A stretch of DNA of 64,000 nt from Alphaproteobacteria bacterium (GCA_965228775.1 OZ245840.1:2760434-2824433); one strand, 5' to 3'; positions 15,516 through 30,788 are shown, counted from the stretch's first letter. A program made the numbers and translations. Notes: generated from the sequence alone by a model not told the origin.

Positions 15516-16001
15516 TCAGTCCCGAAAATTCACATATTGCAGCGGCTGGCCGAGGCCCATGTCCTTCACATGCTGGATGACCGCTTGCAGATCATCGCGC
15601 TTCTTGCCCGTGACGCGCAGCTCGTCACCCTGGATCGCCACCTGCACCTTCATCTTTGAGCCTTTGATGTCCTTGACGATCTTCTTGCCCAATTCCTTAT
15701 CGATGCCCTGACGGATGTTGACGGTCTGACGCACGGCCTGGCCGGCGGCCGGTTCCGGCGTTTGATAATCCAGCACGCCATGGTCGATGTTGCGCTTCGC
15801 CAAATGGCCCTGCAGCACCTCGTGCATCTGTTTCAATTTCAGATCGTCATCCGCATCGATGGTGAGCACACCTTCCTTATGTTCGATCTTGGAATTGGAG
15901 CCTTTGAAGTCATAACGCTGGCCGATTTCGCGCATCACATTGTTGATGGCGTTATCCACTTCGGCGAGGTCGGTTTTGGAGACGATATCGAATGAAGGCA
16001 T
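15516..16001 (-). CDS. yajQ: YajQ-family (UPF0234) nucleotide / cyclic-di-GMP-binding protein
   Basis: Near-colinear by-eye match to E. coli YajQ (MPSFDIVS...VAIQGDELRVTGKKRDDLQAV...GQPLQYVNFRD). Confidence 0.85.
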   Translation of the reverse strand: MPSFDIVSKTDLAEVDNAINNVMREIGQRYDFKGSNSKIEHKEGVLTIDADDDLKLKQMHEVLQGHLAKRNIDHGVLDYQTPEPAAGQAVRQTVNIRQGIDKELGKKIVKDIKGSKMKVQVAIQGDELRVTGKKRDDLQAVIQHVKDMGLGQPLQYVNFRD

Positions 16002-16246: not shown

Positions 16247-16723
16247 ATGGCGTTAGCGGAAACACTCACGAACTGGGTTGAGACCCAGGCCCAAGGGGGC
16301 GTTGAGCTTGACCCCGATGGGGGCATCCAGTTGTTCGTGGCGGACGAGATGGCCGTTGATATCGGCCCGGCGGATAAGCCGGGGACCTTCGCCATGAGCG
16401 CTGCCGTGGGGGTGCTTCCCGAAAAGGATCGCGTTGCCGTCATGCAGGAACTTCTCATCGCGAATCTTGAGGGGATGGGCACAGGCGGTGCCAGCCTCTC
16501 GATTGATCGTTCGCGCGATGAAATTGTGCTCTGCCGCGTTTATCACACCGATGATCTGACCCCTGACGTTTTTGACGAAGAGTTTAGTGCCTTCGTCAAT
16601 GCGCTGCGGTTTTGGCGCGATCGCCACAAGGCGGGCAAACTTGGCACAGCGCCGACGGACGCGGACATGGAAGATCTTGAATCATTATCGCCGCTGAATG
16701 CGAAAGGCCTGGTTCGCGTTTAA
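16247..16723 (+). CDS. Type III secretion chaperone-like protein (CesT / YbjN superfamily)
   Basis: 158 aa, acidic, with the pattern LFVADEMAVDIGP...FAMSAAVGVLPEKDRVAVMQELLIANL...GASLSIDRSRDEIVLCRVYHTDDL characteristic of the class I chaperone / YbjN fold. No T3SS genes are in the window. Confidence 0.5.
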   Translation: MALAETLTNWVETQAQGGVELDPDGGIQLFVADEMAVDIGPADKPGTFAMSAAVGVLPEKDRVAVMQELLIANLEGMGTGGASLSIDRSRDEIVLCRVYHTDDLTPDVFDEEFSAFVNALRFWRDRHKAGKLGTAPTDADMEDLESLSPLNAKGLVRV

Positions 16724-16765
16724 CGAGGCCAGCGCGTTTAAGAGAATGGAAAGCAGAGGAAACTA

Positions 16766-17563
16766 ATGCCTGAGTGGGTTCAGCTTAACCGAAGTCAATT
16801 GATGCCGGCGGGCGCCGACCAGTCCTCCACCACCAAGGTGGAAGACGAAAAGCCTCTCGTCGAATTCAGGCAATCCAAAACCGGCGACAGGATCGAGTTG
16901 CGGACGCAGGCCCGTATCGACCGCAAACGCGGCGGTTTATTGGGGATTGGCCATGCGCTTTGGCGCAATTTGAAATTAGGCCTGGGAATAGACAGCAAAA
17001 ACACTCAGCGTGAGCAGGCGGAACATCGTTTTGATAAAAGCGTGAATACGCTTGTAGAGGACCTTGCTCAAGGTATCGTCACAAAACGCGACTTCATTGA
17101 TAAGCTCGATGAAATCCGCTCAGCTGCCGCAACGCTTACAGAAACAAGTCCTGACTCTTCCGGGCAAGACGCCAGTCAAAAATATTTTGCTGACAGGTTT
17201 GGTAAAAATCTCTCCCTATGTTTGCTCGCGATCGGAAATCAAAACCCCCTTATGTGCCTGCGGGTCATTGATACTTTAAAGCTGCGCTCTGACGACATGA
17301 AAATGGAAGATTATACTTCAAAGTTCATTCAGAATGCCGCCTTCGAGACGACAATTGACACCAAAGAAATGCGTGCGGATCGTAATACCGCATTCAAAAC
17401 CTATACGGACACAATCGACTCGGTTTTGGCTGAAACAACAAGCATCATGGTACAAGCGTTGGGTCCGCGGCCAGCCGCACAGCCCGCAAACCCGTCCGCA
17501 CAAGGACTTCCTCAAGACGCGCAGGACCCAGGGTTACCCAAGGCGGCCGACCGATCGCGGTGA
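16766..17563 (+). CDS. Hypothetical protein, low GC, effector-like (disordered N- and C-termini, helical core)
   Basis: GAGGA 6 nt upstream of the ATG. Lies 42 bp after the chaperone-like gene. About 50% GC versus 62% for the neighbour. No recognisable domain. Confidence 0.5.
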   Translation: MPEWVQLNRSQLMPAGADQSSTTKVEDEKPLVEFRQSKTGDRIELRTQARIDRKRGGLLGIGHALWRNLKLGLGIDSKNTQREQAEHRFDKSVNTLVEDLAQGIVTKRDFIDKLDEIRSAAATLTETSPDSSGQDASQKYFADRFGKNLSLCLLAIGNQNPLMCLRVIDTLKLRSDDMKMEDYTSKFIQNAAFETTIDTKEMRADRNTAFKTYTDTIDSVLAETTSIMVQALGPRPAAQPANPSAQGLPQDAQDPGLPKAADRSR

Positions 17564-17764
17564 CATACCCGTTCATCAACAGTTGATTTGAAGCTAGGTT
17601 GCGGCCACCGCGCATCAACGCTTCCCCACTCGGCCTTTAGAGCCCGGAGGGACGCGGCGCCCCTCTCTTCAAAACGCCTGTATCGACTTGATCTCACCAC
17701 TTCGGCATGAGACGCTTATAGGTTGAATCCTAGCGATCTACACAAACTTTGATAAACTTAGAGA

Positions 17765-20500
17765 ATGGACCCCGAAGCCCAGGCCAGACTGAAGATAGAC
17801 GAATTGCTCGAAGCGGCTGGTTGGCTCTTGCAGGACCGGCCTGATTTCGATCGTACTGCGGCTTTGGGTGTCGCTGTTCGCGAATTCGCTCTCGGTCAAG
17901 ATCAAGCCGACTATCTGCTTTTCGTAGAGGGCAAAGCCGCTGGCGTTATCGAGGCCAAAAAGGCGGGCATCACCCTCTCAGGTGTCGCCGAGCAATCCGA
18001 TAAATATATGACGCGCCTGCCCGAGCATCTCGCCAAATGGCAGGAATCACTCGTCTTCGATTACGAGAGCACGGGCGAAGAAACCTTGTTCAAGGACATG
18101 CGCGATCCACATCCACGCTCGCGCCGCGTTTTCGCCTTTCATCGCCCGGAAACACTGCTCACATGGCTGAAGGCCGACCAATCTCTACGCACAAAGCTCG
18201 CCCAAATGCCACCGCTTGACCCGACCGGCTTGCGCGATTGCCAAGTCGACGCCATTGAAGGCTTAGAAAAGTCTCTTGCCGAAGCGCGGCCCCGCGCCTT
18301 GATCCAAATGGCAACAGGCGCTGGCAAAACATTTACAGCTTGCTCTTTTTCTTGGCGGCTTCTGAAACATGCTGGCGCAAAACGCATATTGTTTCTGGTC
18401 GACCGCTCTAATCTCGGCCGACAAACCCTCAAAGAATTCCAGGAATTTGAACCAACGGGTGCCGGCCATCTGTTTACAGACATTTACATCACCCAGCTTC
18501 TGCGATCTGCCGGCCTCGATAAAGATGCGAAGGTCGTCATCACCACCATACAGCGCCTCTATTCGATGCTGCGCGGCGAAGAACTAGATGAAACAGTAGA
18601 GGAAAAATCAGGCTTTGAGACATGGGAACAAGAAGACGGCGAAGTCAAACCCGTGCCCTATAACCCAGAAATCCCGATTGAAACTTTTGATGTGATCATC
18701 ACAGATGAATGCCATCGCTCCATCTATGGTCTCTGGCGGCAGGTCCTTGATTATTTTGATGCCTTTATTGTCGGCCTCACCGCGACCCCAACCAAGCACA
18801 CGCTGGGGTTTTTCAACCAAAATCTCGTAGCGGAATATCCTTACGACAGATCGGTGGTCGACAAAGTCAATGTGGGTTTTGAAATTTACCGCATTCGTAC
18901 CCGCGTGGGCGAAAGCGGTGGCGTGATTGATAAGGGCTACCAAGTGCCGGTGCGGGACAAACGCACCCGCACCACCCGCTATCGCGAATTGGACGACGAT
19001 CTTAACTACGCAGCACGGGAACTTGACCGATCCGTCACCGCAAAAAACCAGATCCGCACCGTTCTTGAAGCCTATCGTGCCAGTCTGTTTACAGATCTTT
19101 TTCCGGGCCGCACCGGCGAGTGGGTGCCCAAAACACTGATCTTCGCAAAAGATGATAACCATGCGGAGGAAATTGTCACCTCCGTGCGAGAGGTCTTCGG
19201 CAAAGGAAATGAGTTTGCAAAGAAGATCACCTATAAAACCAGCGAAGATCCTCAAGCGCTGATCAAGGCATTCCGTGTGGATGCCATGCCCCGCATCGCT
19301 GTCACGGTTGATATGATCGCCACAGGCACAGACATTAAGCCCGTCGAAGTTGTTATCTTTATGCGGGATGTGAAATCCGAAGGCTATTTCGAACAAATGA
19401 AAGGGCGGGGTGTGCGCACCATTCGCGATGCGGATTTGGCGCAAGTGACACCCGACGCCAAAACCAAAACCCGTTTCGTGTTGATTGATGCTGTGGGCGT
19501 GACGGAAAGCGCCAAGTCTGCTTCTCAACCCCTAGAGCGCAAACACTACACAGGTTTTGACAAGCTGCTCGAACAAATCGCCCAAGGCAGGCGGGATGAA
19601 GATGCCATATCGTCATTGGCCGGGCGCCTTGCGGCCCTGGATAACAAATTGGACCGCGAAGATCACACCCGCATTACCGAGGCCACAGGCGGCAAAACCT
19701 TGCGTGACCTCGCCAACAGCCTGCTCGATTCCATCGATCCAGACCAAATTGAGGCGAAAGTCGGCCCTGTCGCATCCGAGACTGCACGGAAGGAAGCGGC
19801 AGAACGCCTCCAGGAAGAGGCGTGCAAACCCTTTAACAACCCCGCCACCCGACGCTTGTTGATCGACTTGAAAACCAAAGCCGATATTGTGATTGACGAA
19901 ATCACCACCGATGAAGTTCTCAATGCCAGCTTTGATTTGCGCGAAGCCGAAAAACGCATCACCAGCTTCAAAACCTTCATGGATGAAAATAAGGATGAGC
20001 TGACAGCCCTGCAGATTCTCTACAATCAACCAGTTGGTCGGCAACGATTGACCTACGCCCAATTGAAAGAGCTGGCAGCCCGCTTGTCCGACCCGCCCCA
20101 TTTCTTGACCACAGCAGATGTGTGGCAAGCCTATCGACGGCTGGAAGAAGCCAAAGTGCGCGGGGTGCCCGCCGACAAACTACTGACGGAAATTGTCGCT
20201 TTGGTGCGATTCACCCTGGGGCAAATTGACCTGCTGGAGCCAATTTCCCTTCAAGTGGAACGCCGATTCAATTTATGGATTGGACGACAGAAAAAAGCAG
20301 GTGTGGCCTACACACCGGAACAGATGGAATGGCTCATGCTCATCCGGGATCATATAGCCGCCAATGCGGAAATCGCAGCTGGGGACCTCATGCAAAACCC
20401 CGCCTTTGCGGATCGCGGCGGCGTGGTCAAAGCGCGCGAATTGTTCGGGACGAGCCTAACAAACCTGCTGGATGACCTCACCAAGGCACTGGTCGCGTGA
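17765..20500 (+). CDS. hsdR: Type I restriction enzyme R subunit (HsdR)
   Basis: HsdR-like N-terminus, helicase motif I QMATGAGKT, DEAH box IITDECHRS, and later helicase motifs. The stop overlaps the hsdS start. Confidence 0.85.
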   Translation: MDPEAQARLKIDELLEAAGWLLQDRPDFDRTAALGVAVREFALGQDQADYLLFVEGKAAGVIEAKKAGITLSGVAEQSDKYMTRLPEHLAKWQESLVFDYESTGEETLFKDMRDPHPRSRRVFAFHRPETLLTWLKADQSLRTKLAQMPPLDPTGLRDCQVDAIEGLEKSLAEARPRALIQMATGAGKTFTACSFSWRLLKHAGAKRILFLVDRSNLGRQTLKEFQEFEPTGAGHLFTDIYITQLLRSAGLDKDAKVVITTIQRLYSMLRGEELDETVEEKSGFETWEQEDGEVKPVPYNPEIPIETFDVIITDECHRSIYGLWRQVLDYFDAFIVGLTATPTKHTLGFFNQNLVAEYPYDRSVVDKVNVGFEIYRIRTRVGESGGVIDKGYQVPVRDKRTRTTRYRELDDDLNYAARELDRSVTAKNQIRTVLEAYRASLFTDLFPGRTGEWVPKTLIFAKDDNHAEEIVTSVREVFGKGNEFAKKITYKTSEDPQALIKAFRVDAMPRIAVTVDMIATGTDIKPVEVVIFMRDVKSEGYFEQMKGRGVRTIRDADLAQVTPDAKTKTRFVLIDAVGVTESAKSASQPLERKHYTGFDKLLEQIAQGRRDEDAISSLAGRLAALDNKLDREDHTRITEATGGKTLRDLANSLLDSIDPDQIEAKVGPVASETARKEAAERLQEEACKPFNNPATRRLLIDLKTKADIVIDEITTDEVLNASFDLREAEKRITSFKTFMDENKDELTALQILYNQPVGRQRLTYAQLKELAARLSDPPHFLTTADVWQAYRRLEEAKVRGVPADKLLTEIVALVRFTLGQIDLLEPISLQVERRFNLWIGRQKKAGVAYTPEQMEWLMLIRDHIAANAEIAAGDLMQNPAFADRGGVVKARELFGTSLTNLLDDLTKALVA

Positions 20501-22083
20501 GTGAGGCAAGCACGACACTTCCCATTGAGTTTTCTGAATCAGTAGTTTCACAAGAAACCACACCCGTCGGCTGGACTACAGCCAATTTAGGAGAAGTCGG
20601 CGTTTGGACTGGTGGCGGCACACCGAGCAAACGTAACGACGCCTTCTGGATCAACGGCAAAATCCCATGGATCTCCCCGAAAGACATGAAGTCCTTTGAG
20701 ATCTCACGCAGTCAAGATTTTATAACTGGCGAGGCGATTGAAAAATCATCGGCCAAGCTAATCAAGGCAAGTTCCGTTTTGATGGTAACGAGATCGGGAA
20801 TCTTGCAACACACCTTTCCTGTAGGAGTGAATAGTATCGAGGTCGCGGTCAATCAGGATTTAAAGGCAATCACTCCTCACACCGGCATAAATGAGAAGTA
20901 CGTTGCGTGGTACCTAGTTGCCAACAACAATAAAATACTCGCCAACTGTTCTAAAGACGGCACTACCGTACAGAGCGTCGACACAGATCAGCTTAAGTCT
21001 CTTCAAATACCAATAGCTCCGCATAAAGAACAAAATCGCATCGTTTCGAAGATCGACGAACTCTTCAGCGACATCGAAGCCGGAGAGCGGGCATTGGCGC
21101 GGGCGCGGGTTGCGTTGGAACGCTATCGCAAATCTGTCTTGAAAGCAGCTGTAATCGGCGAACTCACCAAAGACTGGCGTGAGGCAAACAAAAACAAGCT
21201 GGAACCCGCCGACAAATTGCTCGAACGCATTCTTGCTGCCCGCCGCACCGCTTGGGAAGAAGCCGAACTGGCCAAAATGAAAGCCAAAGGCAAAACACCC
21301 AAAGACGATAAATGGAAGAAGAAATACAAGCCACCCGAAGATCCTGTATTTAGCTTTCTCAGGATCGTTCCGAATGAATGGGCAGCCGGACGAATTGACC
21401 TATTCGGAGAGGTCCAACTCGGTCGTCAACGAGCACCAAAACACCACACTGGTGATCACATGCGTCCCTACCTTCGTGTTGCAAATGTCTTTGAAGAGAG
21501 AATTGACACGAGCGATGTGAAAGAAATGAACTTCACTCCTAAAGAGTATGAAAACTATAAACTCCATAGAGGTGACATTTTGTTGAACGAAGGGCAAAGC
21601 GCTGAATTGGTTGGACGCCCAGCGATCTACAATGATGAGGTACCTGGCGCCTGTTTTACCAACACGCTCGTCCGCTACAGAGTATTTGAAAATCTGACCG
21701 TCGACTTCGCAATGCTCCTGTTTCGGCATTTTATGCACTCGGGTCATTTTACAAAAATCGCAAGAATTACCACAAACATCGCACACCTTGGTACAGACAG
21801 ATTCGCCTCCATGAAGATTCCATGTCCATCAGCACCTGAACAGTTAGAAATTGTTTCGCGGGCAACTGAAGCATTTAGCAAAACCAATCACATCGAAGCA
21901 GCACTCGATAAACAAGAACGCAAGTCCAAGGCGCTTCGTCAATCCATTTTGAAATCGGCCTTTGAAGGACGCCTCGTTCCCCAAGACATCAGTGATGAAC
22001 CAGCCAGCGTTCTTCTAGAACGTCTAAAACAGAACGCAAAACCCATTACAAAGAACAAGAAGAAAAGAAAGAACACCAAGTGA
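20497..22083 (+). CDS. hsdS: Type I restriction-modification specificity subunit (HsdS), two target-recognition domains
   Basis: AT-rich gene with two TRD-like halves separated and followed by conserved coiled-coil repeats (LERYRKSVLKAAVIGELT... / LRQSILKSAFEGRLV). Overlaps both neighbours by 4 nt. Confidence 0.8.
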   Translation: MSEASTTLPIEFSESVVSQETTPVGWTTANLGEVGVWTGGGTPSKRNDAFWINGKIPWISPKDMKSFEISRSQDFITGEAIEKSSAKLIKASSVLMVTRSGILQHTFPVGVNSIEVAVNQDLKAITPHTGINEKYVAWYLVANNNKILANCSKDGTTVQSVDTDQLKSLQIPIAPHKEQNRIVSKIDELFSDIEAGERALARARVALERYRKSVLKAAVIGELTKDWREANKNKLEPADKLLERILAARRTAWEEAELAKMKAKGKTPKDDKWKKKYKPPEDPVFSFLRIVPNEWAAGRIDLFGEVQLGRQRAPKHHTGDHMRPYLRVANVFEERIDTSDVKEMNFTPKEYENYKLHRGDILLNEGQSAELVGRPAIYNDEVPGACFTNTLVRYRVFENLTVDFAMLLFRHFMHSGHFTKIARITTNIAHLGTDRFASMKIPCPSAPEQLEIVSRATEAFSKTNHIEAALDKQERKSKALRQSILKSAFEGRLVPQDISDEPASVLLERLKQNAKPITKNKKKRKNTK

Positions 22084-23525
22084 CCCGACACGATGATCTT
22101 GTTGCCAAGGTTTGGAACTATGCCCATGTGCTGCGGGACCAAGGTGTGTCTTATGGGGATTATGTAGAGCAGATCACCTATCTGCTGTTCCTAAAAATGG
22201 ATCAGGAGCGAGATGAATATCTCGGCGAACCTTCCGAAATTCCAGCAAAGTACCGATGGGCCGAATTGGCAGCCCTGGACGGGGAAGAGCTGGAAGCCAC
22301 CTATCGCAAAGCGCTTGAAACACTCGCAAAATCTGGCGGACTAATCGGCACACTGTTTAAGGGCGCGCAGAACAAATTGTCCGACCCGGCAAAACTGAAA
22401 CGCGTTGTCTCTCTCATCGACAAAGAAACATGGATTGGCCTGGATGTGGACACGAAAGGCGAAATCTATGAGGGGCTGTTGGAACGCAATGCGTCGGAGG
22501 TGAAGTCCGGCGCTGGGCAATATTTCACACCACGCCCGATCATCGACGCGGCGGTGCGCTGCATCGACCCGAAAATTAGCGAAACAGTGCATGACCCTGC
22601 CTGCGGTACGGGCGGCTTTTTGTTGGCGGCTTATGAACACATGAAACCGCAGGTGCAGGCCGACCGCAGCTTGGTCAAACAACTGCGCGAGGAAACCTTT
22701 ACCGGCGCCGATATCGTGCCGGAAGTGGTGCGCCTTGCCGCCATGAACCTGTACCTTCACGGCATCGGTAATGGCGCGAGCCCCATTGAGCGGCGGGATG
22801 CGTTGTCCGAAGCCTATGGCCGCTATGACCTGATCCTCACCAATCCGCCGTTCGGCAAGAAGTCGAGCTACAAGGTCATCGGCGAAGGCGGCGAAGTGAC
22901 GACCGAGCAAGAGACCTATGAGCGCGACGATTTCAAATACACAACGTCGAACAAGCAACTTAACTTTTTGCAGCACATCATGACCATTCTAAATGTGAAT
23001 GGCCGGGCAGCCGTGGTGCTGCCCGACAATGTGTTGTTCGAAGCAGGGAACGCGGGCGAGGGCATTCGCAAGCGCTTGCTGCAGCAATTTGACTTTCACA
23101 CCTTGCTGCGGCTGCCCACCGGCATTTTTTACAAACAGGGCGTCAAAGCGAATGTCTTGTTTTTCGACAAACGCCTGGCCAGCGAAACGCCGTGGACAAA
23201 AGCCTTGTGGATTTATGATTTCCGTACGAATAAACGATTCACGCTGAAAAAGAACACTCTGGGCAAAGCGGATATGGAAGATTTCGTGACCTGCTATCAG
23301 CCTGGCAATATCGGGAAGCGCAAAGAGACGGAACGGTTTCGGTGTTTTTCTTACGAAAACCTCGTCGCGCGGGACAAAACCAATCTGGATATTTTCTGGC
23401 TAAAGGATGATGACCTAGAAGATGTGGACAGCCTGCCACCGCCGGAAGACCTGGCTGCCGAAATCGTGGAAAACCTCCAAGAGGCGCTGGCACACTTCCA
23501 AGAGGTGGCGGACGAGCTGGCCTGA
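22080..23525 (+). CDS. hsdM: Type I restriction-modification DNA methyltransferase (HsdM), N6-adenine
   Basis: HsdM N-terminal domain (YAHVLRDQGVSYGDYVEQITYLLFLKM), SAM motif DPACGTGGFL and catalytic NPPFG. Confidence 0.85.
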   Translation: MTRHDDLVAKVWNYAHVLRDQGVSYGDYVEQITYLLFLKMDQERDEYLGEPSEIPAKYRWAELAALDGEELEATYRKALETLAKSGGLIGTLFKGAQNKLSDPAKLKRVVSLIDKETWIGLDVDTKGEIYEGLLERNASEVKSGAGQYFTPRPIIDAAVRCIDPKISETVHDPACGTGGFLLAAYEHMKPQVQADRSLVKQLREETFTGADIVPEVVRLAAMNLYLHGIGNGASPIERRDALSEAYGRYDLILTNPPFGKKSSYKVIGEGGEVTTEQETYERDDFKYTTSNKQLNFLQHIMTILNVNGRAAVVLPDNVLFEAGNAGEGIRKRLLQQFDFHTLLRLPTGIFYKQGVKANVLFFDKRLASETPWTKALWIYDFRTNKRFTLKKNTLGKADMEDFVTCYQPGNIGKRKETERFRCFSYENLVARDKTNLDIFWLKDDDLEDVDSLPPPEDLAAEIVENLQEALAHFQEVADELA

Positions 23526-23870: not shown

Positions 23871-24431
23871 ATGCCGATCACGCGCCTGCTTGTGCCCACC
23901 TATGTGCAAATGCTGACGGCCCTGTCGGCCTGGCTTAATAAGGCGGGCGCGACATTTGCCCCGTCGGAGGCCTTCCTGTCGGAACGGCTGGCGGCGGACA
24001 TGTTTCCGCTTTCCACACAGGTGCGTTTCGCGTGCTTTCAAGCGCAAGAGGCCATCTACCGCCTTCGAGGGGAGGCGGTGCCGGAAGCGGTCATGGCCAT
24101 TGCCGTGGAAGGGCAAAATGCGGGCGAGGCGCCGGGCACGCTTGCGGATGCTCAAACGCGGGTGCGGGAAACCTTGGCGTTTCTCGAAACGCTTCCCGGG
24201 AATGCGCTTGACGACGGTGGCGGCCGGGCCATCGCCCTTGATCTGCCCACGGGCATGATCTTCGACATGACGGGCGACCAATATGTGCGGGATTGGGCAC
24301 TGCCGCAGTTTTACTTTCACCTCAATGCGGCCTACGCAATCTTGCGGCAGCAAGGGGTGGCCTTGGGCAAGGCCGATTATGTGCAGCACGCAGTGGCGTA
24401 TCTGCGGCCCAGCACCATGCCCGGCGGATGA
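23871..24431 (+). CDS. DUF1993-family protein
   Basis: 186 aa. Pattern (PTYVQMLTALSAWLNKA...FYFHLNAAYAILRQQGVALGKADY) matches DUF1993 proteins as I recall them. Confidence 0.5.
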   Translation: MPITRLLVPTYVQMLTALSAWLNKAGATFAPSEAFLSERLAADMFPLSTQVRFACFQAQEAIYRLRGEAVPEAVMAIAVEGQNAGEAPGTLADAQTRVRETLAFLETLPGNALDDGGGRAIALDLPTGMIFDMTGDQYVRDWALPQFYFHLNAAYAILRQQGVALGKADYVQHAVAYLRPSTMPGG

Positions 24432-24449: not shown

Positions 24450-24692
24450 CTAGCGACGGATGAGGCCGATCACGAACAGCACGATCACCGCGCCCACTGT
24501 GGCGCCGATGATGGAGCCGATAATGCCAAGGCCCGCGGTGATGCCGATCAGGTCGAACACCCAGCCGCCCACAAACGCGCCGACAATGCCCACAACGACA
24601 TTGCCAACCAGGCCGAAGCCCCCGCCCTTGACGATGTTGCCCGCAAGCCACCCGGCGATGCCGCCAATAAGAAGCCAAACGATCAGACTCAT
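24450..24692 (-). CDS. GlsB/YeaQ/YmgE-family stress-response membrane protein
   Basis: 80 aa with the glycine-zipper-rich TM pattern LLIGGIAGWLAG...GLVGNVVVGIVGAFVGGW typical of this family. Confidence 0.7.
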   Translation of the reverse strand: MSLIVWLLIGGIAGWLAGNIVKGGGFGLVGNVVVGIVGAFVGGWVFDLIGITAGLGIIGSIIGATVGAVIVLFVIGLIRR

Positions 24693-24803
24693 GGCCCTGT
24701 TCCTTCCGGTCGGTTGATCCGATGCGGGCGACTTTAGAAAGGCGGGATTAACACCTCATTAACGATGTGCGGGCGATCGGCGGGGCGCAGATGGCAAAGC
24801 GGC

Positions 24804-24938
24804 TCAGCGCGCGTTCGTTGACAAGAACACCAGCACGCCGATTTCCACCAGGTCCGAAAACCCGGGAACGAAAAGCAACGCCAGCGGCAGAGCAACGGTG
24901 ATGCCGGCACAGAGATAGAGATAGTTCTTAGTGGTCAT
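24804..24938 (-). CDS. Possible 44-aa small membrane peptide (MTTKNYLYLCAGITVALPLALLFVPGFSDLVEIGVLVFLSTNAR)
   Basis: Hand-translated; below the ORF-track length cutoff. Hydrophobic, co-oriented with neighbours. Confidence 0.25.
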   Translation of the reverse strand: MTTKNYLYLCAGITVALPLALLFVPGFSDLVEIGVLVFLSTNAR

Positions 24939-24962
24939 CGGTCTGTTTCCTCGTTATCGCCG

Positions 24963-25496
24963 TTACCGGGGGGCCATTTCGAAAATCCAGGTTTCGCCTT
25001 CGGCCACGGATTTTTCGATTTCCGCGATAGCACCGGGCGTGGCACCGCCTGCATATTTCTGCGCAAGCTTGGCCGCGACACCGGCGATGACCGCCGGGTC
25101 GGTCACGCGGATCAGCCGCCGCTCGTAGCGGATGCCTTCAATGCGCGCGACGGCCAGGCCGTCGCCCGCTTCCGCCTGAAAGGCCCAGTCTTTCCAGAGG
25201 CGGCCGAGGAAGGATTTCATGTAGCCCGACGGCACATAGACCTTGCCGCCGCTTTCCATGATGAAAATCCGGCGCGACGCCAGCGGGTCTTCCAACTGCA
25301 ATTCGATGGTGACGATATCGTCGGTGAAGCGCCAATCGGGCTCCGGGCCTGTGTACAAGTCGCCCGACACCAGCTTGCCGCCGGGAAAGAGAATGGATGG
25401 ACCATCGGCATTGGCATTTTCCAGGCGCAGCGTCGCGAAGGCCACCGCCGGGATCAGTACCAAAAGGCCCAAGATTTGAAGTATGACACGTATCAC
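24963..25496 (-). CDS. Hypothetical membrane-anchored protein (signal-anchor plus periplasmic domain), GTG start
   Basis: GGGGAGGG 6 nt upstream of the GTG at 25494-25496 (VIRVILQILGLLVLIPAVAF...). The longer 231-aa track ORF has no ribosome-binding site. A truncated paralogous 5' end is found at 30229-30306. Confidence 0.5.
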   Translation of the reverse strand: MIRVILQILGLLVLIPAVAFATLRLENANADGPSILFPGGKLVSGDLYTGPEPDWRFTDDIVTIELQLEDPLASRRIFIMESGGKVYVPSGYMKSFLGRLWKDWAFQAEAGDGLAVARIEGIRYERRLIRVTDPAVIAGVAAKLAQKYAGGATPGAIAEIEKSVAEGETWIFEMAPR

Positions 25497-25684
25497 CTGT
25501 TCGCCCTCCCCTGTTTTGCTGAAGCGTAGCGTTAATGGCGGATGTCGTCGATTGAAAGTTGAGGCGGCGCTACGTCGAAGACACGCGCAAATTCGCCGGT
25601 TTCCTGCAAAATCCGAGCGGGCTGGGGCGTAGTGCCGGTGAAGGATTGGGCCGGGCAAGCGCTTTGTGATAATAGGTCAGCGTT

Positions 25685-25957
25685 ATGAGCTATGATGTGG
25701 GTCCGGGCGATTTGGTACTGTGCGTGAATGTGGCGCCGAACCACATGACGGGCGAGCCCGTGCCTTTGGTCGCGGGAGAAACCTACCGGGTCTTGGATGT
25801 CTTCCCCTTCGCGTGCCCATGCGGCCGGTCCGACGCGCTGCTGGATGTGGGCGTCGACTTCGCCTGGTGCCAGACGCGCTTCCGGCTTCTGCCAAAGCCC
25901 CGGGCCGAGTCCAAGCCACGCCGCGTCTCGGCGCCAAAAGAAACCGAAAAAGTGTGA
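25685..25957 (+). CDS. Hypothetical small protein (90 aa)
   Basis: The only support is GC-rich third-position bias; the ribosome-binding site is weak. Confidence 0.3.
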   Translation: MSYDVGPGDLVLCVNVAPNHMTGEPVPLVAGETYRVLDVFPFACPCGRSDALLDVGVDFAWCQTRFRLLPKPRAESKPRRVSAPKETEKV

Positions 25958-25989
25958 CGGCCAGCCGGTAGGGGCTGTGTTCCCAAGCC

Positions 25990-28755
25990 TTACCCGTCGG
26001 CCCTGGCGCTCTCAATTTTGATGATCACTTCGTTTTCATCAAGCTCTTCCGTCCTGACGATGACGTCACCGCTGCTGGACATGTCGCTTGTCGCGCCGTT
26101 CTCGGCACCGTCCGCGTCGTACAGTCCTGTTTGGTCGACAGACTCCTCTGGCGCGTCTCTTAAAGCGGCCTGTAGAGGATTGAACGCCCCATCAGACCCG
26201 CCTGCCGTGACACCACCGGCGGCATGGGGTGGGGCGTATTCATCAAGCTGATCGACCGAGTCCTCTGGCCCGACCGCCAAGTTGCCGCCCGCCACATCGT
26301 CCGGCTTCTCTTCGATTACGTTTGGAACGGAGCTTTTAGACCCCAATTTTAAGACATCGTTACTCTCTTTGTCCGAACGGGCGTTATCCACTTCCTCATG
26401 GATCTTGTCGAAAGCCTCGGCTTCATTGAATTGCTCCATGAACGCGGCCAAGTTAAACGCCCTCGATTCTCGGAAGTCCTTACCGCCAGGCTTGCCTATA
26501 TAGAGGTCCATATCGTCCGCTTCATTTACGTCAATGTTATCGACAAAGTCTGCGAACGGCCCTTCCAAATAGTCGTCTCTGATGGCATCAGCTGGATCGA
26601 ACGTCACCGACGGCCTGAAATCTCTGCCAGAATAATTTGGGCCGAAGTCCGCAAGGCCCCCGCCTATGGCGACATCAGCGCCCTCGCTGCCATCTTCGGA
26701 ACCACCTGCCGTGACGCCGTGCCCGGCTGAGGGCTGAGCATTTACATCCTCTTCATCGACCGGTTCCAAGACATTGCTAACTGAAGGATCAACTAACACT
26801 CCAGTCTCAGAGTACTCTGCCTGCATCGACCCGAAAGATTTTTCCCGCACCAATTGTCCCATTGCAGCCTGTGCATGATGGCGGTTAGGCACGCTCATCA
26901 GCGCCGGGTAGTGAAGAAGCAAGAGCGCGATGCGCTGCTCTCTTAATTCCTCCAGTTGCGTATCAATGTCAGTATTGTGGACTTCGCCGAGTATTTTTTG
27001 GCGGCGCTTTATCGTACGGGCAAGGTAGTCGTTATCTTCGATCGCTTGCTTGACCTGTTTTCGAAACTCAAAAACCTGCCTTCTCTCATGCTTATCTCGT
27101 TCCTTGGGGCCTTTTTTGACCAGCCCCTCATATTTGGCCCAGTCATCTTTAATTTTGAGAGTTCTCTCATTGTGATCGTTTATGACGCTTTCAAAACCGC
27201 TTTGACCGGTTGAATCCGCCTGGAACAATATGTGCGGCGTAGCCATCGTCTGTTGGAGCCCTTTGTTTATGCGGGATCCAAAATTGCTTTCACCCCGCCG
27301 CTTCGGCATCTCAGACAAACTAACCAGGAGAGGGGGTGGCTGTTGTGTTTTGTACTTGGCGGTCTGCACCGGAGAACAAAATGCTTTCGCCAAATCGAGC
27401 GTTTCCAGGCAAAAATCCTCCGCGATTCCATAGGTCTTCCAAACGGCATCGCTGGGCGTGACGCGGCGCTTGCCATCTTCATCTCTGTGCAGATCAAAAA
27501 GCGCCGCCACGGCCTTATCCATGTCCTTGGCATTCTTGACCAGCGCATCGTATATGAACCGCCGTTTATCGATGTGCGTTAAATCATCCGGATAGGACAA
27601 CTTTTCCAACTGACCAAGAAGGCGCTTATTCTCTTGCGCAACATTCTGGATTTGCGCCATCAGGTTCGTGCATTCCTGCTGGAACGTCTGCGCGCCAAAA
27701 GCCCCTAACTGGCTTTGAAGTTTCCTTTCTTCAGCGGTGTCAAACAACTTCCCTTCTTGCTCAAGAAGCTCCGTCCAAACAGTGGAAAGGCGCTCTGCAC
27801 TGGCTCTAATGGTTTCCGGAAGACGCGCGTCGCGTATCACCGCTGCGGTTCTGCTCGGCCAAATTTTCCGGCTTTGTAGTGTTTCGCGGACCTTTTCAGC
27901 GTTCGTCTCAGACATGCCACCGTTAATGTAGGTTTTTTCCTGGCGGCTTTTTACATTGATTGATTGATTGTCTCGGTTTCCGTTGTTTGCCGTTTCTATA
28001 AAGCACGTCCGATGCCCTACATTGCGGAGTACGGTTTGCGCGAGCTGCACAGCGTCTTTCTGAATCCCTTCTTTGTTCAGTACGTAAGCCACTTTTCCAA
28101 GTTCTTTGGAACGCGTACGCAGATAGTCATCGCAAATAGCCTGGCAGAGATTATCGGTCTCTGCGACCATCACCTTCTCGGTTTTTCTGCCATGCATATA
28201 GCGCACGCTCGGTGACCACTGGTGATGCGCGGCTTCAGCCCCCCTGCCCATGTATGTTTCCAGCCGTTCTTGAAGCGTACCAAGATCCTGAATGCGAAGC
28301 TCTAGCTTGGCGGCTCTGGCCTCTACCCTTCGGCGAAGTTCACCCTCTTCTAGATCTGCGCCGCCCGGCTCATTACGAATTTCGTTTCGCGCACGTTCCG
28401 TCAGCACTTCATCGACGACAAACTCCCCGATCGGCTTATTGAGTTTGTTTTCCTCATGGTCAGGGACTTGATAGTCATAGCCAAAGTTGATGCAACGGGC
28501 GATGTCCTCGCGCGCGCCCAAAAACTTCTTACCGCGCAACCAAACGCCGCTGCCGAACATTGTGTTATTGCTCGTGTTCCTGATGCCGTCCTTCGCATAA
28601 AGGCCTTTTTCCGCCGTCCAGCGCAATGCAGAGTTCTTGCTGAGACCGCCCTCCTTCGCCTTGCTTTCCAGTTCCTGTTTAATTTGCGAGAAGGTCTTCC
28701 CAGTTGTTTGGACACCATCTGTCTTTGCCGGACCAATTCTGAAGGAAAGTTTCAT
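25990..28755 (-). CDS. Large hypothetical protein (about 921 aa). N-terminal half is lower-GC and helical; C-terminal roughly 300 aa is highly acidic, GC-rich and low-complexity, with repeated GVTAGGS[E/D]DG motifs
   Basis: AGGAG 9 nt upstream of the ATG at 28755 (MKLSFRIGPAKTDGVQTTGK...). No confident domain match by eye. The N-terminus is faintly reminiscent of relaxase motif I (xRIxPxxGxxTxxQIxxxLE), but the catalytic Tyr and His triad are not evident. Confidence 0.6.
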   Translation of the reverse strand: MKLSFRIGPAKTDGVQTTGKTFSQIKQELESKAKEGGLSKNSALRWTAEKGLYAKDGIRNTSNNTMFGSGVWLRGKKFLGAREDIARCINFGYDYQVPDHEENKLNKPIGEFVVDEVLTERARNEIRNEPGGADLEEGELRRRVEARAAKLELRIQDLGTLQERLETYMGRGAEAAHHQWSPSVRYMHGRKTEKVMVAETDNLCQAICDDYLRTRSKELGKVAYVLNKEGIQKDAVQLAQTVLRNVGHRTCFIETANNGNRDNQSINVKSRQEKTYINGGMSETNAEKVRETLQSRKIWPSRTAAVIRDARLPETIRASAERLSTVWTELLEQEGKLFDTAEERKLQSQLGAFGAQTFQQECTNLMAQIQNVAQENKRLLGQLEKLSYPDDLTHIDKRRFIYDALVKNAKDMDKAVAALFDLHRDEDGKRRVTPSDAVWKTYGIAEDFCLETLDLAKAFCSPVQTAKYKTQQPPPLLVSLSEMPKRRGESNFGSRINKGLQQTMATPHILFQADSTGQSGFESVINDHNERTLKIKDDWAKYEGLVKKGPKERDKHERRQVFEFRKQVKQAIEDNDYLARTIKRRQKILGEVHNTDIDTQLEELREQRIALLLLHYPALMSVPNRHHAQAAMGQLVREKSFGSMQAEYSETGVLVDPSVSNVLEPVDEEDVNAQPSAGHGVTAGGSEDGSEGADVAIGGGLADFGPNYSGRDFRPSVTFDPADAIRDDYLEGPFADFVDNIDVNEADDMDLYIGKPGGKDFRESRAFNLAAFMEQFNEAEAFDKIHEEVDNARSDKESNDVLKLGSKSSVPNVIEEKPDDVAGGNLAVGPEDSVDQLDEYAPPHAAGGVTAGGSDGAFNPLQAALRDAPEESVDQTGLYDADGAENGATSDMSSSGDVIVRTEELDENEVIIKIESARADG

Positions 28756-29221
28756 TACAAGGACTCCTGGATACAATTCTGTTTGCGGCGGACACATCGC
28801 ACGTGGTTAGGAAATCGCTCCCATGATCGGCGAATCCCGTTAGAATTTTCTCTGGATTGATTGCATGACAGTCTCACGCGAACGAATTCGCCGCGATTCG
28901 CGGCGCGACGAACGATGAGGCAAGACGGGCCAGCTATTGGTCCAGTGGACCAATCACGCCTTTAGCCGCCCAGGACCCTAAAGCGTTCCGGGCTGTCTCC
29001 TTCTTTCCATGCTCACGCGTCGCAAGATTGAGAGGGATTGCAGCGTATCTGCGGCATTTCACCAAACACGCCAAAGAGCAGAATTGGTTCGCTGTACACT
29101 GAGTTTTACATTTCCCTTTTGCCAAGCCGAAGGATTGAAAAGGAACTCGGTTCGGCCTAGGGCGAAACTCTCGTCGCAAAATTGATGATTTCCGGCACCC
29201 AGATGATGCGTCTAAAGAGGG

Positions 29222-30001
29222 TCAACCAGCCTCGTCGTAAGCGGGCACATCATCTTTCAATAACCGGTCCACAATTGAAGCCGGAAGAACACGAGCTAAT
29301 TGGGCCAGCTTCGCCATACGCCAAGGGAAGAAGTATTCTGATTTCCCTTTCTTCATGGCCTTAACGATGTGCGCGGCACCTGCTTCTTCCGAGATTTCGT
29401 TGGGGGCGGGCATCCCGTCGTTTGCGGTCGCTTCGGTTGCGACAAAACCCGGGTAAATCGTTATGAATTTGATCCCGAACTCTGCAAACTCTAACCGACA
29501 TGTATCCAGCAACAGTTTGGCCGCCCCTTTGCCTGCGCAATACGGCCCTTGAAGCGGAACGCCGATCAGTCCAGCCAGCGAATTGGTGTGGACAACACAA
29601 CCGCTTTTTCGCCGCTTCATATGTTCGAGCGTGGGAAACAAATAATTGACGACGATATCATAGTTGGATCGCATAAACGCTTTGACGTCACCCGCCGACA
29701 TATGACGCATGTCGAGCGCGGGCGCCCCACCGGCGTTCAAAAGAAGAGTGTCGATTACTCCGAACTTCTCTAGCGTTTTTTCGACCACATCGGCCGCTGC
29801 CTCTTCTTGCATCGCATCAGCCGCAAAGAAGCAGGACTCGCCGCCTGCGGCGTTAATCTCCTGACACAGCTCGGCAAGCTTTTCCGAACGCCGCGCGGTC
29901 AGCGCCAGCTTTGCTCCTTCGGCACCGAGCTGTTTGGCAACCAATCGTCCCATACCTGAAGACGCGCCAACGATCAGAACCGACCTTCCTGCAAAATTCA
30001 T
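29222..30001 (-). CDS. SDR-family oxidoreductase (short-chain dehydrogenase/reductase)
   Basis: GGAGG 11 nt upstream of the ATG at 30001 (MNFAGRSVLIVGASSGMGR). TGxxxGxG cofactor motif, NAG motif (LLLNAGG) and catalytic YxxxK (YCAGKGAAK). Confidence 0.8.
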   Translation of the reverse strand: MNFAGRSVLIVGASSGMGRLVAKQLGAEGAKLALTARRSEKLAELCQEINAAGGESCFFAADAMQEEAAADVVEKTLEKFGVIDTLLLNAGGAPALDMRHMSAGDVKAFMRSNYDIVVNYLFPTLEHMKRRKSGCVVHTNSLAGLIGVPLQGPYCAGKGAAKLLLDTCRLEFAEFGIKFITIYPGFVATEATANDGMPAPNEISEEAGAAHIVKAMKKGKSEYFFPWRMAKLAQLARVLPASIVDRLLKDDVPAYDEAG

Positions 30002-30037
30002 ATCCAGACAGCCTCCATGCACTGCTCGCACACTCTA

Positions 30038-30097
30038 TTACGATAGTATTGGCTATCTTTTTTCAGATTACAATAGTATTCGCTATATTTTTTTATC
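30038..30097. repeat. Two tandem imperfect 30-bp AT-rich direct repeats (TTACGATAGTATTGGCTATCTTTTTTCAGA / TTACAATAGTATTCGCTATATTTTTTTATC)
   Basis: Seen directly, immediately upstream of the SDR start. Confidence 0.5.
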
Positions 30098-30228
30098 AAG
30101 CACCCGACGAATCCATGCGAGCTTTGATGGTCCGCTCGGCGAGTATGACGAAAGTAGCTTCACCTCTTTGATCAACGCTCGGAAGCACTGATTTTATGTG
30201 GGCAGTTACAACACGAAATTTGCGTGCT

Positions 30229-30306
30229 CCAGGCGCAGCGTCGCGTAGGTGACCGCCGGGATCAGCATCAACAGGCCGATGATTTGAAGGATTATTCGGA
30301 TCAATT
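30229..30306 (-). pseudogene. Truncated paralogous copy of the 5' end (about 28 codons plus ribosome-binding site) of gene 24963-25496; reading frame ends after LIRIILQIIGLLMLIPAVTYATLRLEHAN-FVL*
   Basis: About 80% nucleotide identity over roughly 100 bp between 25421-25520 and 30229-30330, including the GGGGAG site. Similarity stops abruptly at 30229. Confidence 0.5.
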
Positions 30307-30413
30307 GTCCGAACTCCCCTTTTTCGCCGGAGAGTAGCCGCGTTCAGCGCCTCTCTCGATCAAGCGTTGATGACATGATGGCCCGGAGGCGGTGCGATTT
30401 CGTTGGTTTTCGG

Positions 30414-30433
30414 TGAAATCTGGAGCGGGCGAT
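30414..30433. repeat. 20-bp direct repeat (GAAATCTGGAGCGGGCGATG) duplicating the 3' end of tRNA-Gly (second copy at 30524-30543); att-site-like scar
   Basis: Exact 20-bp identity seen directly, 110 bp from the tRNA 3' end. Confidence 0.45.
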
Positions 30434-30531
30434 GGGGTGAGGCGGGTGAGCGGTTGGCCCGGGGCACCAATCGACCGCCGAACGAACCCAGGACGCGATC
30501 CTTGGCAACCACCGGAAAGGTTTTAGAAATC

Positions 30532-30606
30532 TGGAGCGGGCGATGAGATTCGAACTCACGACCCCAACCTTGGCAAGGTTGTGCTCTACCCCTGAGCTAC
30601 GCCCGC
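30532..30606 (-). tRNA. tRNA-Gly (anticodon GCC), CCA encoded
   Basis: Hand-folded cloverleaf: acceptor GCGGGCG/CGCCCGC, D-arm GCTC-AGGGGTA-GAGC, anticodon stem CAACC/GGTTG with loop TTGCCAA, T-arm GTGAG-TTCGAAT-CTCAT, discriminator T, CCA. Confidence 0.9.
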
Positions 30607-30715: not shown

Positions 30716-30788
30716 CCATCCCACTCCCCCGGCCCAGCCACCCGTTCCAGGGTACCCTTGGGGTGGTTGGGCCGGGGGAGTGGGATGG
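30716..30788. repeat. REP-like palindromic element, family copy 1 (CCATCCCACTCCCCCGGCCCAGCCACCC...GGGTGGTTGGGCCGGGGGAGTGGGATGG)
   Basis: Long near-perfect inverted repeat; related copies at about 41086-41155 and 42256-42326. Confidence 0.6.

Follow-up and report, generated by a model that had tools for sequence, protein, structure and literature searches.

The window studied here is a stretch of 64,000 nt from an Alphaproteobacteria bacterium (GCA_965228775.1, OZ245840.1:2760434-2824433), and all positions are counted from its first nucleotide. It contains two similar 5' gene ends (repeat copies A and B), one belonging to an intact gene for a 177-aa protein, which we call geneA, and the other to a 32-codon stub, fragB, close to a tRNA-Gly(GCC) gene. 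We consider the stub to be left over from a second geneA-family copy, closely related to geneA itself and situated next to tRNA-Gly, which would have been cut at codon 29/30 by a non-site-specific insertion or replacement bringing in a block of low-GC DNA, and we give this reading a probability of roughly 55%. The initial annotation of the region had proposed from the same repeat that an element integrated into, or recombined with, the gene's 5' end. The true homology, the foreign DNA between the copies and the tRNA-Gly hotspot stand from this proposal, but the discrete 4.8-kb element bounded by the repeats does not. Nothing in the evidence shows a self-contained mobile element, and the best explanation of the repeats is that they are not the attachment sites of such an element, just the conserved 5' regions of two gene copies. 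Table 1 gives the coordinates of the features concerned.

Results

Two related 5' gene ends

When the interval 25380-30400 was compared with itself, the A/B pair was the single long repeat: the two copies match over 121 nt without a gap, are 78% identical and are spaced by 4808 nt, with copy B and the stub upstream of geneA. With blastn in the 64-kb window, the pair is aligned at 79.3% identity over 111 nt (25420-25530 and 30228-30338, E=9e-23). The similarity of the geneA 5' end and its upstream DNA to a second copy, which was the starting observation of the initial annotation, is therefore real and significant, with small corrections of the coordinates.

Both copies have the promoter-like motif ATCGAC-N18-TACnnT and then a GGGG(A/G)G ribosome-binding site upstream of the start (window 25497-25560 and 30305-30368). 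The same upstream motifs are present in 5/5 aligned homologues of other genomes, at about 9940-10000 in L084, L085, L007 and L006 and at about 7940-8000 in L002, while the genomic contexts are otherwise unrelated. The upstream limit of the repeat is thus the limit of a promoter-like region found family-wide, and therefore it is not a recombination boundary or a scar. The motif, for which an Rfam scan of 24-31 kb gave no family match, appears to travel with a two-gene cassette made up of geneA and a 44-aa membrane-peptide gene directly downstream.

The longest identical run between the copies is the 18-mer TCCAGGCGCAGCGTCGCG at 25420-25437 and 30228-30245, which has no other site. It encodes ATLRLE, the most conserved peptide stretch of the geneA family. 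When the A/B mismatch positions were shuffled, a run of at least 18 arose in 23% of the shuffles (p=0.23); such a run is expected by chance at 79% identity and so has no statistical support as an att core. On this value, the run was not taken as an att core.

At its other end, the homology of fragB to the family extends up to codon 29 (..ATLRLEHAN), and the divergence is complete beyond. The stub has no trace of the invariant ADGPSILFPGG motif of the family, whose start is codon 30. Since the homology reaches codon 29, the breakpoint is at about 30218, some 10 nt past the identical run, and not exactly at 30229, where a sharp end had been placed before; the stop after 32 codons, noted at the same time, was confirmed. 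The 32-codon open reading frame (ORF) belongs to a dead 5' stub of a membrane-protein gene, comprising promoter, ribosome-binding site and 29 codons, and on the favoured reading it should be marked in annotation as a gene remnant.

We then consider how the two ends are related. Over codons 1-29, copies A and B differ at 18 of the 87 nt, with a distribution of 6:1:11 at codon positions 1:2:3, and the replacements are conservative. From this pattern it follows that both 5' ends diverged within functional genes and that the truncation of the stub came later. At the DNA level across these 87 nt, B is 78% identical to A, whereas its identity to five further homologues is 62-64%. Among the N-termini of 111 family members, the best match of the stub is geneA (23/29 residues) and the next best has 20/29. 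Since B is nearest to A, the source copy of the stub was closer to geneA than any database sequence. The N-terminus of A has its best matches in P0125 (24/29) and in B, while B and P0125 agree at 19/29.

Table 1. Positions of the features around the repeat pair and the tRNA-Gly gene.
Feature	Position	Strand	Remarks
Hypervariable interval	24680..30531	.	Contains the cassette, orf90, foreign block, stub and partial tRNA copy
44-aa membrane-peptide gene	24804..24938	-	Directly downstream of geneA; tblastn and gene calls at homologous loci
geneA, intact, 177 aa	24963..25496	-	ORF; N-terminal membrane helix and predicted split beta-barrel domain
Repeat copy A	25410..25530	-	Promoter-like motif, ribosome-binding site and codons 1-29 of intact geneA
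orf90, 90 aa	25685..25957	+	Host-like GC at third codon positions (GC3) of 0.77; inside the repeat-bounded interval, outside the low-GC block
Compositionally foreign block, ~4.2 kb	25985..30217	.	GC ~0.52, GC3 0.58; left edge approximate
921-aa orphan protein	25990..28755	-	ORF; acidic C-terminus
Short-chain dehydrogenase/reductase (SDR), 259 aa	29222..30001	-	Pfam adh_short PF00106, 8.2e-42, 143 bits against a cutoff of 26.6
AT-rich 30-bp tandem repeat	30037..30093	.	1.9 copies, 88% matches
Stub ORF fragB	30206..30304	-	TTG start, 32 codons LIRIILQIIGLLMLIPAVTYATLRLEHANFVL, stop at 30206-30208
Repeat copy B	30218..30338	-	Promoter-like motif and ribosome-binding site as in copy A, then 29 homologous codons; breakpoint at ~30218
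Decayed partial tRNA-Gly copy	30415..30508	-	3' end and flank 20/20, T-arm/anticodon part 81%, ~43 extra nt
tRNA-Gly(GCC)	30532..30606	-	Variable region is bounded on the right by its 3' end

Composition of the DNA between the copies

The 90-aa ORF, the 921-aa ORF, the SDR gene and the AT-rich tandem repeat that had been reported between the copies are all present (Table 1), and they do not have the same composition. The values of GC3 are 0.75 for geneA, 0.73 for the 44-aa gene and 0.77 for orf90, with the flanking core genes at 0.65-0.78. In contrast, both the 921-aa gene and the SDR gene have a GC3 of 0.58, and the GC content is 0.44 in 30002-30217. By this contrast, the foreign DNA covers only ~25985-30217, which is smaller than the interval bounded by the repeats.

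The right edge of the foreign block is the stub breakpoint (30217/30218). Its left edge lies between the stop of orf90 (25957) and the stop of the 921-aa gene (25990), about 460 bp from repeat A, and the left 460 bp of the interval, comprising the A promoter, a spacer and orf90, have host-like composition. Thus, the boundaries of the supposed element and of the foreign DNA coincide at the right but not at the left. The expectation of a foreign composition is borne out for the block itself and fails for orf90 and the A promoter. For annotation, the foreign block should be drawn at ~25985-30217 and not at 25421-30330.

orf90 is a real gene. It has 88% amino acid identity to L080:2556-2825, with substitutions of 10:7:42 by codon position, and this homologue sits in the tRNA-Gly-adjacent variable region of L080, which is one of the nearest relatives.

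The tRNA-Gly locus in relatives

The nearest relatives with usable contigs are L078 and L080, in which the YbaK-like protein is 84% and 76% identical, respectively. From a relative at 91%, only a 976-nt contig is available, and it ends inside the tRNA. Exact-protein look-ups with the YbaK-like protein, geneA and the 921-aa protein returned no record, and a metagenome scan with the YbaK-like protein returned no match. The window has the following order in common with both L078 and L080: YajQ-like gene (PF04461/DUF520), DUF1993, Transgly_assoc, variable DNA, tRNA-Gly(GCC), YbaK-like gene and thioredoxin-TPR gene.

The homology to L078 breaks off at 24679 and starts again at 30532, precisely the tRNA 3' end; that to L080 starts again at 30525. 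Between the Transgly_assoc gene and tRNA-Gly, L078 has only 1.36 kb with an APH gene, and L080 has ~9 kb of other genes at the same position. Since the flanks are homologous and the interior is replaced in the relatives, all of 24680-30531 is lineage-specific. The locus is a tRNA-Gly-linked hypervariable hotspot.

The att-like repeat of tRNA-Gly mentioned in the initial annotation was found as described: the tRNA 3' end and 6 nt of its downstream flank are repeated at 20/20 positions at 30415-30434, 111 nt from the tRNA. The repeat forms part of a partial tRNA copy that takes in ~13 nt of the flank and in which the ~43 extra nt lie between the acceptor and T-arm parts; neither ARAGORN nor Rfam makes a tRNA call there. 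L078 and L080 lack this partial copy. It may have been left behind by an earlier integration that targeted the tRNA, or it may be a tandem tRNA that has decayed. With up to 3 mismatches allowed in 24 nt, the rest of the window has no further copy of the tRNA 3' end, and there is no distal repeat delimiting an island.

The geneA family

No sequence match was found for geneA in Pfam, NCBIfam or PDB. At E<=1e-30, the family has 752 homologues, mostly in metagenome-assembled genomes (MAGs) of marine or soil Pseudomonadales. Among 185,579 species representatives we recovered 77 loci of the family (~72 genomes), again mostly from Pseudomonadales MAGs with a few Alphaproteobacteria. The members have in common an N-terminal membrane helix, the invariant ADGPSILFPGG from codon 30 and a membrane-peptide gene of 43-44 aa directly downstream. 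In 44 of the 77 loci, a tblastn match to the 44-aa gene immediately follows the geneA homologue, and a gene of 43-44 aa is also called there in L084-L087. As a side observation, several genomes have two distant paralogues at separate loci (e.g. L048 and L060, L039 and L058).

The AlphaFold2 model of geneA has a pLDDT of 74. Its top Foldseek matches are Ddn/FDOR/PNPOx-like, with E-values of 2e-4 to 1e-2, TM-scores of 0.45-0.65 and identities of 9-15%. With this moderate match, the predicted fold resembles a membrane-anchored split beta-barrel of the flavin/deazaflavin-binding type, as in FDOR, PNPOx and Ddn, a deazaflavin-dependent nitroreductase.

The position of the cassette is not conserved. 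The MAG of L078 has its geneA homologue (81%) on a separate contig, L007. The homologue of L025 is found on the far side of the YajQ-DUF1993-Transgly_assoc block and in opposite orientation (L025 2-627, corresponding to window 24810-25409), which points to the cassette having been inverted or moved between close relatives. The homologues in L084 (86%) and L085 (82%) have yet other neighbours. As the neighbourhood is different in every relative examined, the cassette belongs to the flexible gene pool. In none of the 60 loci scanned (56 of the 77, plus L084-L087) is a geneA homologue located beside tRNA-Gly(GCC).

For the pair in the window, an ancient and conserved tandem paralogy does not describe the data, since there is no nearby second copy in the 77 loci and the relatives have one copy elsewhere. 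The cassette itself is uncharacterised, is widespread in marine and soil Proteobacteria and has a conserved promoter motif; it may turn out to be more useful than the repeat.

Search for a mobile element

Scans of the ORFs between 16 and 31 kb with Pfam, NCBIfam and PHROG gave no hit to an integrase or another recombinase domain, which agrees with the earlier statement that no integrase is left. The intergenic ORFs (28756-29221 and 30002-30560) show no integrase remnants either, and recombinase domains are likewise missing from the surrounding ORFs at 14-24 kb. Neither terminal inverted repeats nor target duplications were found where the low-GC block begins and ends. The segment has no match to phages, and against plasmids there is only a generic partial match to the SDR gene on one plasmid.

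Discussion

Origin of the stub

We account for the above observations by the following order of events. A second copy of the geneA family would once have adjoined tRNA-Gly. The cut of this copy at codon 29/30 would mark the start of the ~4.2-kb foreign block with the SDR and 921-aa effector-like genes, and the joint would have been made by non-site-specific (illegitimate) recombination in the tRNA-Gly-linked hypervariable region. The intact geneA would have retained its own promoter and N-terminus, with orf90 being part of the host-like DNA. The homology, the breakpoint, the compositional boundaries, the variable locus and the lack of recombinase genes are observed, and the order and the mechanism are what we infer.

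This reading has two sub-variants. In sub-variant (a), both copies would have been resident, either as an old tandem duplicate or by two arrivals of the cassette, and the low-GC DNA would have replaced the 3' part of the copy proximal to the tRNA. In sub-variant (b), the DNA from the low-GC block through orf90 to geneA would have come in one piece from a closely related bacterium by homology-anchored illegitimate recombination, the crossover being homologous, inside the gene or past it, and the joint at codon 29/30 in the resident copy being illegitimate. Either sub-variant may hold.

Homology-facilitated illegitimate recombination, the type of process involved in sub-variant (b), does not depend on a recombinase gene in the DNA that enters; it makes one homologous joint and one illegitimate joint, where microhomology is expected, and can leave a truncated resident gene beside foreign DNA. 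It is said to have been described by de Vries and Wackernagel in 2002 (PNAS 99:2094, as cited in PMC4613141). The locus in the window is alike in that a truncated gene is next to foreign DNA and no recombinase gene is present.

Four observations weigh against the favoured reading. First, the two copies are in direct orientation around the foreign DNA, exactly as a single-crossover insertion would give. Second, an uninterrupted ancestral arrangement, that is, a full-length second copy or an empty site, was not found in the relatives recovered; no empty site could be found there because the nearest relatives, L078 and L080, have no geneA at the tRNA-Gly locus. Third, a second copy or 5' stub of the family within +/-10 kb of a geneA homologue occurs in 0/77 loci, so the close pairing is unusual and hints at a causal role for the homology. 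Such a role would be supplied by sub-variant (b), and also by the insertion of a circular molecule considered below, but not by sub-variant (a). Fourth, the chimerism test of geneA, in which the identity of the N-terminus is compared with that of the body, gave values within the family scatter for both A and B; it has no power because the N-termini vary more than the bodies across the whole family. The identities of geneA to L084, L085 and L007 in blocks of 87 nt likewise gave no discriminating signal.

The favoured reading would make the locus a routine case of tRNA-linked hotspots, which accumulate and erode acquired DNA, and a new instance of well-known genome wear.

Alternative explanations

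A Campbell-type insertion is possible but, in our judgement, doubtful. Here, a circular 4.8-kb molecule bearing its own promoter and codons 1-29 from a geneA homologue would have recombined at the resident 5' end, site-specifically or via a short identical run. The resident promoter and 5' end would have been displaced as the stub, and a replacement supplied. The integrase would have been lost later, as in a cis-mobilizable element (CIME). Direct repeats do flank the interval, the target gene does remain intact and the junction at the right end of the interval is sharp, but the interval is a compositional mosaic, with its left 460 bp host-like and with a homologue of orf90 in the equivalent region of a relative. 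The longest identical run is near the inner edge of the homology, as this model would have it; however, a run of that length is not significant (p=0.23) and it lies inside the conserved ATLRLE motif, and the repeat ends upstream where the promoter ends throughout the family.

The model also explains why two copies of the family are so close here and nowhere else in the 77 loci, which suggests that the homology was causal. Against the model, the geneA 5' end is occupied in no other genome among these loci, the unit was found nowhere else, neither phages nor plasmids match it, and its 921-aa protein is essentially unique. The searches also detected no integrase or excisionase, intact or as a remnant. 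Moreover, copy A, which the element is supposed to have supplied, is if anything nearer to the clade of the gene itself than copy B, the supposed native one (24/29 compared with 19/29 to P0125). Precedents are documented both for elements that duplicate part of their target gene and for elements that keep the att sites after the integrase is lost (PMC4129442, PMC5704250). If the model were true, the element would be a rare one that substitutes a promoter and 5' end for those of the target gene, with moderate interest for the choice of integration sites.

We regard as unlikely a more specific form of this idea, in which the interval is the integrase-less cis-mobilizable remnant of a kind of integrative element not seen before. 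It would have targeted the 5' end of a membrane-anchored flavoprotein-like gene and brought along a promoter and an N-terminal helix as substitutes, so that expression of the target continues and the old promoter is redirected into the cargo of the SDR gene and a secreted-effector-like gene.

It is improbable that the stub arose by a local partial duplication, in which only the promoter and the first ~29 codons were copied in a rearrangement, the stub was never a complete gene and the copies have drifted since. The finding that A and B are mutual nearest relatives among the 111 family members is what a local copy would give, but the 21% divergence with its 6:1:11 pattern and conservative replacements, together with the intact start and ribosome-binding site, indicates coding selection and not neutral decay, and an old useless fragment is unlikely to persist in a region of such fast turnover. 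Chance or convergence of a conserved signal-anchor and promoter motif, with no genome-specific shared history, is effectively refuted: although the N-terminal helix and the promoter motif are conserved family-wide, the family is rare among the species representatives, the E-value in the window is far too low and B is much closer to A than to the five homologues.

Comparison with known systems

The locus can be compared with three kinds of known systems. When compared to tRNA-linked genomic islands and hotspots, it is alike in that the variable DNA begins exactly at the tRNA-Gly(GCC) 3' end and has a different content in each relative, part of it has atypical GC with effector-like and accessory genes, and a partial copy of the tRNA 3' end is nearby. 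It is unlike them in having no integrase and no distal tRNA-derived repeat, and the A/B repeat comes from a protein-coding gene.

The second kind comprises elements whose integration duplicates part of the target gene and thereby keeps the gene intact, such as prophages at 3' ends, and the streptococcal SpyCI islands in the 5' end of mutL (PMC4129442). In these systems, as here, a direct repeat of a gene end brackets the inserted DNA and one complete gene copy is left. However, such elements have an integrase and use the same site in many strains; here there is neither, the two repeat copies agree at only 79%, and the change of composition on the left is off the repeat. SpyCI, in addition, silences its target instead of supplying a working 5' end.

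The third kind is the CIME, which is a decayed integrative and conjugative element (ICE) or integrative and mobilizable element (IME) that retains attL and attR and has lost the genes for integration and transfer (PMC5704250). Both have an interval that lacks an integrase and lies between direct repeats, with a target-gene end contained in the repeats. CIMEs are recognised via an intact ICE or IME at the same att site, whereas for the geneA family no such relatives or occupied sites were found.

Other features of the region

The 921-aa protein has no match in Pfam, NCBIfam, PHROG or PDB, and among 5.8 billion proteins it has one homologue only, P0122, with 45% identity over residues 1-640. P0122 has 1317 aa (L083 10001-13954) and only the N-terminal 640 aa are in common. 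Its locus is on a TARA ocean contig with SopD-family and CesT genes 6-9 kb away, and the window also has a CesT chaperone gene, at 16247-16723. From genomic context alone, it is plausible that the 921-aa protein is a type III secretion effector. Such an orphan effector-like protein is a side product which may be more useful than the repeat itself. Its acidic C-terminal part also has short internal repeats, for example at 26132-26155 and 26249-26272.

For the SDR gene, a search for the donor gave nearest metagenome relatives of at most 61% identity, whose neighbours are unrelated and which are linked neither to the 921-aa gene nor to geneA. A sigma-70-like promoter that faces the SDR gene (TTGATA-18-TATTGT, minus strand, 30099-30070) is overlapped by the AT-rich tandem repeat. 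From the stub to the SDR gene there is no predicted terminator, and the orphaned promoter of the stub is possibly now directed into the SDR and 921-aa genes.

When compared to L078, the window has a second insertion of ~7.5 kb at 16247-23525, between the YajQ-like gene (15516-16001) and DUF1993 (23871-24431), where the GC content falls to 0.45-0.54. The cargo starts with the chaperone gene of the CesT family of type III chaperones mentioned above and a 265-aa ORF (16766-17563) that has no family match and is possibly its effector. It is followed by a complete type I restriction-modification system, with HsdR at 17765-20500, HsdS at 20497-22083 and HsdM at 22080-23525.

Lastly, the only matches in the Rfam scan were the true tRNA and a GC-rich hairpin at 30716-30788, between tRNA-Gly and the YbaK-like gene, which is similar to repetitive extragenic palindromic (REP) elements. 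The match of the hairpin is a weak one, below the threshold, to the Brucella sRNA BSR0441. Its arms of 28 nt are 96% complementary, and similar copies are found in L078 (8628-8692, 9872-9940 and 20288-20371) as well as in L080 and L025.

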